Of a stretch of 64,000 nucleotides of DNA, positions 22,543 to 23,917 are shown piece by piece. The stretch lies in the IMG/VR virus record IMGVR_UViG_3300024346_000007, one strand, 5' to 3'. Both the position numbers and the translations under genes were made by a program. Origin of the DNA: a virus. Position 1 is the stretch's first letter. The number at the start of each line of letters is the position of its first letter. The notes under the pieces were generated by a model. That model ran no database searches, was not told the DNA's origin, and worked only from the letters and a program-made list of their open reading frames with translations.

Positions 22543-22616
22543 TGGACCCACCTGGACTTGAACCAGGGACCCTCTGATTATGAGTCAGATGCTCTAACCG
22601 ACTGAGCTATAGGTCC
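22543..22616 (-). tRNA. tRNA with CAT anticodon, probably Ile2 (lysidine type)
   Basis: Full cloverleaf GGACCUA/UGGGUCC, GCUC/GAGC, UCUGA-CUCAUAA-UCAGA, CCUGG-UUCAAGU-CCAGG; lacks initiator features; CCA not encoded. Confidence 0.9.
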
Positions 22617-22619
22617 AAT

Positions 22620-22918
22620 GCTGTTGTTCTTTAACTTATTTTACTTTTTGTTAATTAATTTGTTTTCTAATTTGTCGCAACGTGAATCTACCATACGAAT
22701 AATCTCATCAGCACGATCTCCTAGGTGCCTGTAGACTTCTTCTATGTTATGAGATACGTCTCTTTGAGTATCATCAATTTCTTTCTTTACTTGATTTACC
22801 TTAACGAAAGCATAAACAGCAACTATTGCAATTACAATAACTACCACAAACGCTATCCCTAAAATGAATGATAATGTTTCCATAATTTATTTCTCCTTAT
22901 ATGTCAAAGAACAACAGC
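22620..22918 (-). repeat. 20-nt inverted repeat (22620-22639 / 22899-22918) enclosing one gene; includes boxA-like GTTCTTTGACA
   Basis: GCUGUUGUUCUUUGACAUAU pairs with AUAAGUUAAAGAACAACAGC (19/20 incl. one G.U). Confidence 0.85.
22641..22883 (-). CDS. single-pass membrane protein with coiled coil
   Basis: N-terminal TM, C-terminal DSRCDKL; leader contains AAGGAG. Confidence 0.7.
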   Translation of the reverse strand: METLSFILGIAFVVVIVIAIVAVYAFVKVNQVKKEIDDTQRDVSHNIEEVYRHLGDRADEIIRMVDSRCDKLENKLINKK

Positions 22919-22920
22919 TG

Positions 22921-22998
22921 TAGTCAGGACAGGATTCGAACCTGTGACGTACCACCACGGAATGAAAATTATGTACAAAAACGTTCCGCCACCTGACT
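22921..22998 (-). ncRNA. tRNA-like element 1 (intact acceptor and T arm, degenerate D/anticodon region)
   Basis: AGUCAGG..CCUGACU-A acceptor; ACAGG-UUCGAAU-CCUGU T arm, identical to element 2. Confidence 0.75.
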
Positions 22999-23007
22999 AT
23001 AAGAGTG

Positions 23008-23163
23008 GGCCTTTCCCCACGGTCAGAAGAACTTGAAACTTACCTACGCACAGTGAGGTATTCTTCGTGGTCGTTCACAGAGCTTGTTCAGCGTGCACCA
23101 TTCCAAGTTGTCGTGCGTGTCAAAGCTTTCAAACCCATCTCTTACGAGGTAAGGAACTAGGCC
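23008..23163 (-). ncRNA. rod-shaped RNA with central bubble, 6S RNA-like
   Basis: Nested pairs GGCCU/AGGCC, UUCCUUAC/GUGGGGAA, UUGAAA/UUUCAA, ACGCAC/GUGCGU, 12x15-nt bubble, UGGU/ACCA; G.U pairs favour minus strand. Confidence 0.55.
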
Positions 23164-23176
23164 ATTTGTTTTTGCG

Positions 23177-23270
23177 TAGTCAGGACAGGATTCGAACCTG
23201 TATGGATAGGACTTATGTATAACTGAGATACTGCCCTGCCTTAAGCGTCTACCAATTCCGCCACCTGACT
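23177..23270 (-). ncRNA. tRNA-Leu-like element 2 with extended anticodon arm
   Basis: Leu-type D arm GGCGGAAUUGGUAGACGC; AGGGC/GUCCU plus GUAU/AUAC closing the 7-nt loop CUCAGUU; same acceptor/T arm as element 1. Confidence 0.75.
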
Positions 23271-23273
23271 ATG

Positions 23274-23407
23274 TAAGAGAAGCTGTGGGTCTTTCAGGGT
23301 TTCTGGTTATTAACGTTAAATGTGGAGGTGGGTGCACTGTTTACTACAAACCCTTTTTCAACCTTCATCCACCTAGTTAATAACTACAGCTTCAACCGCT
23401 TCTCTTA
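23274..23407. ncRNA. unknown structured RNA with probable pseudoknot
   Basis: TAAGAGAAGC/GCTTCTCTTA, GAAGCTGT/ACAGCTTC, GTTATTAAC/GTTAATAAC, AGGTGG/CCACCT, crossing AGGGTTT/AAACCCT. Confidence 0.6.
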
Positions 23408-23417
23408 GTACATTTTA

Positions 23418-23608
23418 GGAAAGCAGAAGATGGGTGCGTGGACATCTGCTTTTACGATTGGCATTTCTAACCTAGTTTCCAATCAACCTTTTTGCAACTC
23501 TATTCCCCAGTGGAGTTGCGTTCACCGCTAGCTAACGATCTAGAGGACATTTGTGCATTGTTAAGAGGCATTCCTGGGTTTTCGATCCACCGGCCTAGTG
23601 GCTAGTTA
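23418..23608 (-). ncRNA. unknown multi-hairpin RNA
   Basis: GC-richer non-coding segment; hairpins GCAACUC/GAGUUGC, GAUUGG/CCAAUC, AAAGCAGA/UCUGCUUU, CUAGC/GCUAG. Confidence 0.5.
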
Positions 23609-23677
23609 ATTTTACTTTTTTTAGATATTTATATGTGATCAAATGTTATGAATCTTTTTTAATTTAAAACAAATAAA

Positions 23678-23839
23678 ATGAAAGATCAAGTACTCGGACT
23701 TATTAGACACGCCTTAACATTTGTTGGCGGAATCGTAGTAGCTAAAGGATTAGTAGATGACGTTCTTTTTCAAGAAGTTATCGGCGGCATTATGACACTT
23801 GTCGGTGCTGGTTGGTCTATTGCTTCTAAACAGAAGTAG
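23678..23839 (+). CDS. putative small holin (53 aa, missed by ORF track)
   Basis: MKDQVLGLIRHALTFVGGIVVAKG..IGGIMTLVGAGWS; two TMs; ATATTTATA at 23625, terminator downstream. Confidence 0.7.
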   Translation: MKDQVLGLIRHALTFVGGIVVAKGLVDDVLFQEVIGGIMTLVGAGWSIASKQK

Positions 23840-23864
23840 TATAACCAATAGTTTTTTTAAATAG

Positions 23865-23892
23865 TAGGGTCGATTTTTATCGGCCCTTTTTT
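23865..23892 (+). terminator. intrinsic terminator of holin-like gene
   Basis: AGGGTCGAT-TTTT-ATCGGCCCT + T-run. Confidence 0.75.
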
Positions 23893-23893
23893 A

Positions 23894-23917
23894 TTTCAAA
23901 GAACTTATGTAAATATA
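23894..23917 (-). promoter_or_regulatory. putative promoter (TATATTTA) followed by boxA-like GTTCTTTGAAA, driving the RNA island
   Basis: Minus strand TCTTATATTTACATAAGTTCTTTGAAA. Confidence 0.45.

Follow-up and report, generated by a model that had tools for sequence, protein, structure and literature searches.

The IMG/VR virus record IMGVR_UViG_3300024346_000007 comprises 78 kb and is about 46% complete. We analysed a stretch of 64,000 nucleotides of this record, in the following called the window, and therein a 1.1 kb island of small RNA genes on the minus strand (23606 to 22542). The record carries genes for a family-A DNA polymerase, ribonucleotide reductase (RNR), DnaB, GroEL and a ClpP-like protein, and its source is a large lytic phage, uncultivated and from a lake. 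Within a long run of minus-strand genes the island accommodates one true transfer RNA (tRNA), two tRNA look-alikes built on a common frame, three other folded RNAs and one tiny protein gene. The parts of the island recur, reshuffled, across hundreds of uncultivated phages.

Layout of the island

On the minus strand the units follow each other in the order RNA C, RNA B, tRNA-like 2, ACGCAC-motif RNA, tRNA-like 1, a gene for 80 amino acids (aa) and tRNA(CAU). Direct reading of the sequence gave spacers of 1–6 nt at the unit borders, such that the tight packing described in the initial annotation (2–13 nt) was confirmed with slightly different values. The G+C content amounts to 0.44–0.48 between 22900 and 23600 compared to approximately 0.30–0.37 in the flanks, and a terminator scan of the island detected no terminator inside it. 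The individual features are the following (ORF, open reading frame; z, fold score relative to shuffled sequences; R1, covariance model of the frame, see below):

23489 to 23606, minus strand: RNA C, upstream part (nhmmer E = 1e-27 to L082/G001; alignment)
23414 to 23488, minus strand: 3' module of RNA C, minimal form of the GATTGG/CCAATC motif, having an insert of 16 nt (pattern in at least 119 viral contigs)
23274 to 23407, minus strand: RNA B, 134 nt, with a 10-bp terminal stem and an internal GGGTTT/AAACCC pairing (fold z = -2.4)
23177 to 23270, minus strand: tRNA-like 2 (Rfam tRNA 39.6 bits; R1 78.4 bits; fold)
23126 to 23176, minus strand: leader of 50 nt, 5' strand of a supposed rod (not conserved)
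22999 to 23125, minus strand: ACGCAC-motif RNA, conserved core of the supposed rod (motif in 81 viral contigs)
22921 to 22998, minus strand: tRNA-like 1 (Rfam tRNA 31 bits; R1 60.9 bits)
22620 to 22918, minus strand: micro-ORF cassette consisting of 5' arm (22903 to 22918), Shine-Dalgarno sequence, ORF and 3' arm (22620 to 22635)
22641 to 22883, minus strand: micro-ORF, 80 aa, with one transmembrane segment and a coiled coil (weak match to phrog_1009)
22542 to 22616, minus strand: true tRNA, anticodon CAU (ARAGORN; Rfam 73.7 bits)
23678 to 23839, plus strand, outside the island: holin-family gene, 53 aa (PF23987, Pam3 gp28 holin family, 65 bits; phrog_37382)
23866 to 23887, plus strand, outside the island: terminator of the holin gene (terminator scan)

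The element order of the initial annotation held from 23606 to 22542 but not for 23678 to 23917. Since the latter region contains the plus-strand holin gene and its terminator, the stretch above approximately 23610 is not part of the minus-strand island. The element previously taken as promoter and boxA was lost in this way: no promoter was found, and the holin-family gene occupies 23678 to 23839. At the other end of the island, both ARAGORN and Rfam agreed with the annotated tRNA(CAT). Its G1-C72 pair shows that it is not an initiator, and it is an elongator tRNA of the Met or the Ile2 type.

Among GenBank phages no close relative of the 8-kb region was found. A distant search with the 1.5-kb region returned the true tRNA as sole match, and a synteny search via the ClpP-like gene provided no related viral loci. 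Scanning the window and 142 kb of related loci with Rfam detected tRNA, transfer-messenger RNA (tmRNA) and a group I intron only. This excluded 6S, GOLLD, ROOL and Y RNA as identities of the island RNAs.

The tRNA-Leu frame and its family

Both tRNA-like RNAs scored above the gathering score of the Rfam tRNA model, while ARAGORN called neither of them. As initially annotated, they have identical ends, which comprise 15 nt on the 5' side and, on the 3' side, 25 nt together with the C that follows. The 24-mer of the 3' end occurs in exactly 2 copies in the window and in the entire record (chance expectation 0). From the Rfam alignment, a constrained fold and R1, both RNAs possess a 7-bp acceptor stem (AGTCAGG/CCTGACT in either case), a 5-bp T stem capped by a loop of the TTCGAAT type, and a discriminator base. 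A standard anticodon arm of 5 bp and 7 nt is absent from both, and the Rfam alignments jump 29 and 24 nt at this position. tRNA-like 2 represents a tRNA-Leu frame with acceptor stem, Leu-type D arm including G18G19, T arm and A73, in which an over-long irregular hairpin (about 13 bp) with a CAG-type loop of 7 nt takes the place of the anticodon and variable arms. In tRNA-like 1 a single hairpin with a 21-nt loop replaces both the D arm, and thereby G18G19, and the anticodon arm.

The initial annotation had suggested searching for the common frame sequence in the genome and in metagenomes. Beyond the 2 copies in the record, at least 120 IMG/VR contigs contain the exact 24-mer, and a single locus can hold as many as 6 copies. 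Among 185,579 species genomes it was present in only 14, each time on contigs of metagenome-assembled genomes with scattered labels, such that an origin of the frame from a host tRNA was rejected. The frame is thus a phage-only tRNA-Leu scaffold that is near-absent from these species genomes. Its 5' part, which lay outside the search query and contains the Leu-type D arm, is conserved as well. Searching 494 kb of related loci with R1 provided 188 matches at E ≤ 0.01, of which about 115 reached 50 bits or more; the lower-scoring matches include true tRNAs. The length of the members varies continuously from 54 to about 180 nt and their middles are unrelated in sequence. Within the frame stems 97.6% of the stem cells are paired and 14 of the 15 pairs exhibit compensatory changes. 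Two variants (L212 and L222), which carry the ACGCAC motif as middle, have fully compensated acceptor and T stems, indicating that the fold of the frame and not its sequence alone is under selection. Some members are intact tRNA-Leu genes (e.g. L035 with anticodon CAA), and we therefore conclude that the frame derived from a phage tRNA-Leu.

The middles form subfamilies that recur in differing contexts, and folded middles reach 100–130 nt. Frames are located in tRNA regions or between genes, where they occur in multiple copies. At locus G005 (L147, 1110 to 6134, minus strand) 13 frames within 5 kb alternate with ATG-started micro-ORFs of 54–115 aa, which are orphans in PHROGs. A bank of 13 true tRNAs is located upstream of this array. 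Our literature searches found no account of a reused frame, of exchangeable middles or of the leader motifs, such that the frame family and its modularity appear to be undescribed.

In the nearest relative (locus G002) 76 of the 78 nt of tRNA-like 1 are identical, compared to 81–86% identity in the flanks. tRNA-like 2 is identical over 97 of 97 nt in locus L189, where the polymerase gene and another ORF have identities of 64% and 80%, respectively. The middles are thus as conserved between orthologues as the arms. The initial annotation had named arms that decay as fast as the middles as a sign of simple pseudogenes; neither part was found to decay. Scans with 16-mers of both middles returned mostly chance matches in coding DNA, with real matches only in G002 and L189. 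Antisense targets of the middles within the window were not apparent, as the longest complement of 9 nt was below the shuffle mean of 10.5–10.8 nt.

One may consider the tRNA-like units as decaying duplicates of a phage tRNA-Leu gene, given that intact tRNA-Leu genes exist among the members and that tRNA-like 2 keeps its CAG-type loop. For a decay, however, the ends are too perfect, and the middles were replaced rather than eroded. Lengths between 54 and 180 nt, stems with compensatory changes, 97–100% identity among orthologues and hundreds of copies across phages all speak against it. We consider pseudogenes highly improbable, since the conservation pattern contradicts them.

A further possibility is that the frames are non-decoding leucine acceptors or tRNA decoys. 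Once they are provided with a CCA tail, the host leucyl-tRNA synthetase (LeuRS) would bind or charge them, or they would engage another tRNA-binding factor or a defence nuclease, and the factor would thereby be titrated or redirected during infection. Bacterial LeuRS needs A73, the U8-A14 pair and G18/G19 in contact with the T loop, while the anticodon arm is dispensable (PMC2377443). tRNA-like 2 and most of the family keep just these elements and vary the anticodon arm, the D arm is of the Leu type, and the frame sequence is conserved far past structural need. Nonetheless, the D arm is missing from tRNA-like 1 and from further members, and U8-A14 as well as G18/G19 are universal in tRNA and not Leu-specific. 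Furthermore, the 46%-complete record contains no gene for an L/F-transferase, a CCA-adding enzyme or a peptidyl-tRNA hydrolase. For a decoy of anticodon nucleases one would expect an anticodon loop, which is not kept. Altogether, we judge a role primarily as leucine acceptor or decoy to be unlikely.

Processing signature, intervening modules and their exchange

The sequences flanking the frames carry a signature. Among 181 frames U-1 was found in 83%, A-2 in 71%, A73 in 93% and C74 in 97%, whereas none of them encodes CCA as such. An equal flank pattern is seen for true tRNAs at these loci. The shared 3' signature is unusual: frames and true tRNAs encode C74 instead of CCA, with the discriminator being followed by the C and then by an A/U-rich run. 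With respect to the nearest long ORF 168 frames are co-oriented and 34 opposite. An ORF stop is located within 20 nt upstream of 27% of the frames (4% in controls), and an ORF start 11–40 nt downstream of 28% (6% in controls). Known substrates of RNase P include tRNA-like RNAs, phage RNAs and mRNAs (PMC11143913). From their sequence the frames look like processed RNAs and not like DNA sites, and they are presumably cleaved by RNases.

The three intervening RNAs recur in phages (81, 103 and at least 119 contigs for the ACGCAC motif, RNA B and the GATTGG/CCAATC motif, respectively) and are absent from Rfam. They often end a few bases ahead of the 5' end of a tRNA and stand in fixed register with the tRNA or frame. 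In the GATTGG/CCAATC motif one variable pair forms a standard base pair throughout (97 of 97 instances), an insert of 16–103 nt separates the outer strands of P1, and 44 of 95 instances are followed by a tRNA or frame that starts 25–29 nt past the pattern. Tandem arrangements of this motif were seen in L386, L398, L401, L419, L427 and L451, including contigs of more than 300 kb. The upstream part of RNA C forms hairpins at 23544–23575 and 23493–23518. The first one is abiF-like, yet an abiF RNA at this position (minus strand) was dismissed, since the score of 28.8 bits is below the gathering score of 37 and the hairpin is not kept in the G001 homologue. Its loop is near the abiF consensus and could be a mimic of the abortive-infection RNA or arise by chance. 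Homologues of RNA B are found between tRNAs in L035, L046 and L050; of the 103 contigs with its pattern a part is due to chance.

Leader and ACGCAC-motif RNA together had been described as a 6S-like rod. This view was not supported: no 6S match was found in Rfam at E ≤ 10 between 22300 and 24100, and the full 178-nt rod folds no better than shuffled sequences (z = -0.46). The 5' strand of the closing stem, i.e. the leader, is missing in two related loci, where an ORF end is found in its place (G002) or where it is absent (L219). What is conserved is the multi-hairpin core, for which an alignment of 57 sequences provided 18 pairs, 11 of them with compensatory changes. A terminal 5-bp hairpin of the ACGCAC-motif RNA (23005 to 23020) ends 6 nt ahead of tRNA-like 1. 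Such 5-bp hairpins, whose stem covaries and whose loop is of the GAAAGA type, recur in related loci 4–6 nt ahead of about 15 frame 5' ends, and T5 RNAI contains a similar loop sequence. In 14 of 59 cases the motif is free-standing and then followed by a frame, as in the window, while in 16 of 59 it constitutes the middle of a Leu frame. The same cargo can thus ride inside or beside a frame. The initial view of cargo RNAs placed beside the frames was therefore correct regarding conserved modules in fixed register but too narrow regarding this RNA.

The micro-ORF cassette was described as a panhandle-sealed messenger RNA (mRNA), and our analysis corroborated the panhandle. The 16-bp panhandle between 22903–22918 and 22620–22635 appears in the minimum free energy (MFE) and centroid folds (z = -4.3), and in G002 it is kept via two compensatory double changes. 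The micro-ORF is real, given a protein identity of 53% with in-frame indels. Paired ends, which the initial annotation had proposed for the released RNAs, are enriched in general: for 127 spacers beside frames the ends pair with -12 kcal/mol or less in 19.7%, compared to 7.1% for permuted pairs (p = 8e-4). The strongest end-paired spacer is the micro-ORF cassette of the window.

These observations bear on the idea that the frames are pure punctuation, i.e. mere processing signals like the t-elements of plant mitochondria, with the middles being filler and the intervening RNAs the actual products. Frames at unit borders with 1–6 nt spacers, their tRNA flank signature, the fixed register of the flanking modules, the excess of end pairing and the proximity of ORF stops and starts would all agree with it. 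For a mere signal, however, a minihelix of 25 nt would suffice, whereas the middles are folded RNAs of up to 100–130 nt, and their subfamilies are kept across different contexts. In addition, 16 of 59 instances of the ACGCAC-motif RNA serve as a middle themselves. Because the middles are as conserved between orthologues as the arms, pure punctuation is disfavoured, and we attribute a low probability to it. Of the reusable scaffold acting as a punctuation mark, as initially proposed, there remains one frame that is reused at borders in a co-oriented and terminator-free setting; its conserved middles make it more than a punctuation mark.

Frame boundaries are the sites at which phages differ by insertion, exchange and reordering of modules. 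G002 contains the same modules as the window in a different order. L189 and G002 have a common upstream gene, but from inside the frame onward their middles and downstream genes differ. In L219 the GATTGG/CCAATC motif is directly followed by the ACGCAC motif, from which it follows that the window holds a 288-nt insertion comprising RNA B, tRNA-like 2 and the leader.

Such exchange raises the question whether the frames act mainly as DNA, with an incidental RNA fold. They would then be sites for recombination or homing within a cassette system, either integron-like or targeted by homing endonucleases as in the tRNA regions of T4 and T5. The swap of a middle together with the downstream gene at a shared site with the junction within the frame, the differing module order among relatives, the clean 288-nt insertion and the G005 array of 13 frames alternating with orphan micro-ORFs would fit such sites, as would the endonuclease genes within the tRNA regions of T4 (segB) and T5 (HNH). 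The frame orientation relative to genes is, however, strongly strand-specific. RNA-only features are kept (U8, A14, G18G19, T loop, A73, U-1, C74) and the stems covary, including those of L212 and L222. No integrase, recombinase or endonuclease was found among the neighbours tested beside the island or the G005 array, with the records being fragments. Recombination at identical stretches of 25 nt moreover requires no dedicated system. Frames acting mainly as DNA sites are thus even less probable than pure punctuation.

Apart from the island, the window contains a tmRNA gene (26056 to 27263, minus strand), which is split in the T loop by a 798-nt group I intron (26075 to 26872; Rfam core 26660 to 26883, 97.3 bits). 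After in silico removal of the intron ARAGORN calls a tmRNA of 410 nt with a 23-residue tag ending in TFA. The tmRNAs of G002 and G001 are uninterrupted. An ORF of 198 aa (26122 to 26718, plus strand) lies antisense within the intron in a stretch of 27% G+C and has no Pfam match.

Interpretation and comparison with known systems

On balance we lean towards the reading that the island is an RNA island of the kind present in the tRNA regions of phages T5 and T4, in which cleavage of one transcript by tRNA enzymes would mature the frame RNAs and free the modules between them. We infer that the island is transcribed as a single unit. Host tRNA-maturing enzymes would cut the long transcript at each tRNA or tRNA frame, with RNase P acting at the U-1|A+1 junction and 3' maturation taking place at A73-C74. 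This would turn both frame RNAs into stable tRNA-shaped RNAs. The intervening modules as well as the micro-ORF mRNA would be freed by the same cuts and thereby receive defined ends, which are often base-paired. The Leu frame would provide processing, stability and possibly CCA addition or leucylation, while the exchangeable middle would confer a specific function. The frame RNAs would then be genes in their own right and not spacers. Being near-identical in sequence, the frame ends may also serve as junctions at which modules are swapped, inserted or reordered between phages.

Several observations weigh against this interpretation. A sigma-70-type promoter for the island was looked for and not found, where the promoter type of the host may differ. 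RNA C has no thermodynamic signal (z = +1.67), nor does the rod over its full length. tRNA-like 1 has no D arm and may therefore form an imperfect elbow. A recent transfer instead of selection on the middle could account for the 100% identity of tRNA-like 2. In a compact phage genome one would expect any element to be packed tightly beside ORFs, and the end-pairing excess is modest and rests on a minority of the spacers. Finally, none of the cultured phages among 50,697 GenBank records contains the GATTGG/CCAATC motif, the ACGCAC motif or tRNA-like 2, such that published transcriptomes provide no check on the modules.

The favoured interpretation provides predictions on where RNase P and RNase Z cleave, on stable RNAs approximately 94 and 78 nt long and on leucylation. 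A broader version appears possible but doubtful to us: a general phage system of tRNA-framed cassettes, in which the frame is at the same time an RNA handle (for processing, stability and perhaps charging) and a DNA homology junction, and through which phages trade plug-in small RNAs and micro-ORFs. The cargo would then include at least three undescribed classes of structured RNAs, possibly anti-defence or host-takeover RNAs. Should host or defence factors be targets of the cargo RNAs, these RNAs would form a new class of phage accessory genes that is invisible to protein-centred annotation. Independent of this, the alignments can be used to define new RNA families.

Shuffling at short repeats has well-known counterparts. 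In integron attC arrays and in the shuffling of promoter-early stem-loops (PeSLs) of T4-type phages, short paired-end repeats separate promoterless ORF cassettes. Different from these repeats, the frame is a tRNA-shaped, strand-specific RNA gene. Engineered tRNA scaffolds, in which a tRNA body lends processing and stability to an unrelated RNA, are artificial and have no homology to the frames, which can be considered as their natural counterpart. In the tRNA-microRNA (tRNA-miRNA) units of gammaherpesviruses a tRNA body likewise confers processing and stability on an unrelated RNA; these eukaryotic units depend on Pol III and RNase Z and are not homologous to the frames either.

In tRNA punctuation of animal mitochondria and for the t-elements of plant mitochondria RNase P and RNase Z define RNA ends (PMC1920247). 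The island resembles t-elements in that tRNA-like folds immediately adjoin mRNAs and other RNAs, and its presumed cleavage would follow the same mechanism. t-elements differ by being organellar, and conserved middles are not known for them.

The closest likeness is found in coliphages. The tRNA region of T5 (AY543070.1, 30.2–34.0 kb) contains, like the island, co-oriented tRNAs, tRNA-like and other stable RNAs (including RNAI/III/IV/2H) and small ORFs down to micro-ORFs, separated by spacers of 0–20 nt. T5 RNA1 and RNA2 are annotated as 'tRNA-like stable RNA with unknown functions'. Similar to the frames, RNA1 encloses a non-tRNA middle of 80 nt between a D arm of the Leu type and a T arm, and the T arm of RNA2 is one base off that of the frame. 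Based on sequence and fold, the tRNA-like units of the island thus correspond to the T5 RNA1/RNA2 type, i.e. tRNA ends around a non-tRNA middle in a phage tRNA array. The T5 RNAs differ from the frames in being single genes with their own acceptor sequences (just 10.5 and 25.1 bits with R1), and no reused frame, swappable middles or shared leader motifs are known from the T5 region. In T4 the species 1 and 2 RNAs (rnaC and rnaD; AF158101.6) are small stable RNAs located where the tRNA cluster ends, with spacers of 1–6 nt to the abutting tRNA. The tRNA precursors of T4 are classic substrates of RNase P (PMC11143913). Like the frames, rnaC has a long middle and closes with a canonical T arm and acceptor stem, while the fold of rnaD has no tRNA end. 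Neither is related to the frames in sequence (R1 reached 20.4 bits on part of rnaC), and T4 has no repeated frame.

As these tRNA regions share the layout, including annotated tRNA-like stable RNAs, the island does not constitute a new system, as had been proposed. To our knowledge, for about forty years no function has become known for the tRNA-like stable RNAs of T4 and T5; the kind of layout is already known from these phages, its function is not. Together with the island they are part of a large modular repertoire in uncultivated phages and not oddities of two coliphages. This repertoire is characterized by one Leu frame with exchangeable middles, at least three motifs that are not in Rfam and micro-ORF cassettes sealed by covarying panhandles.

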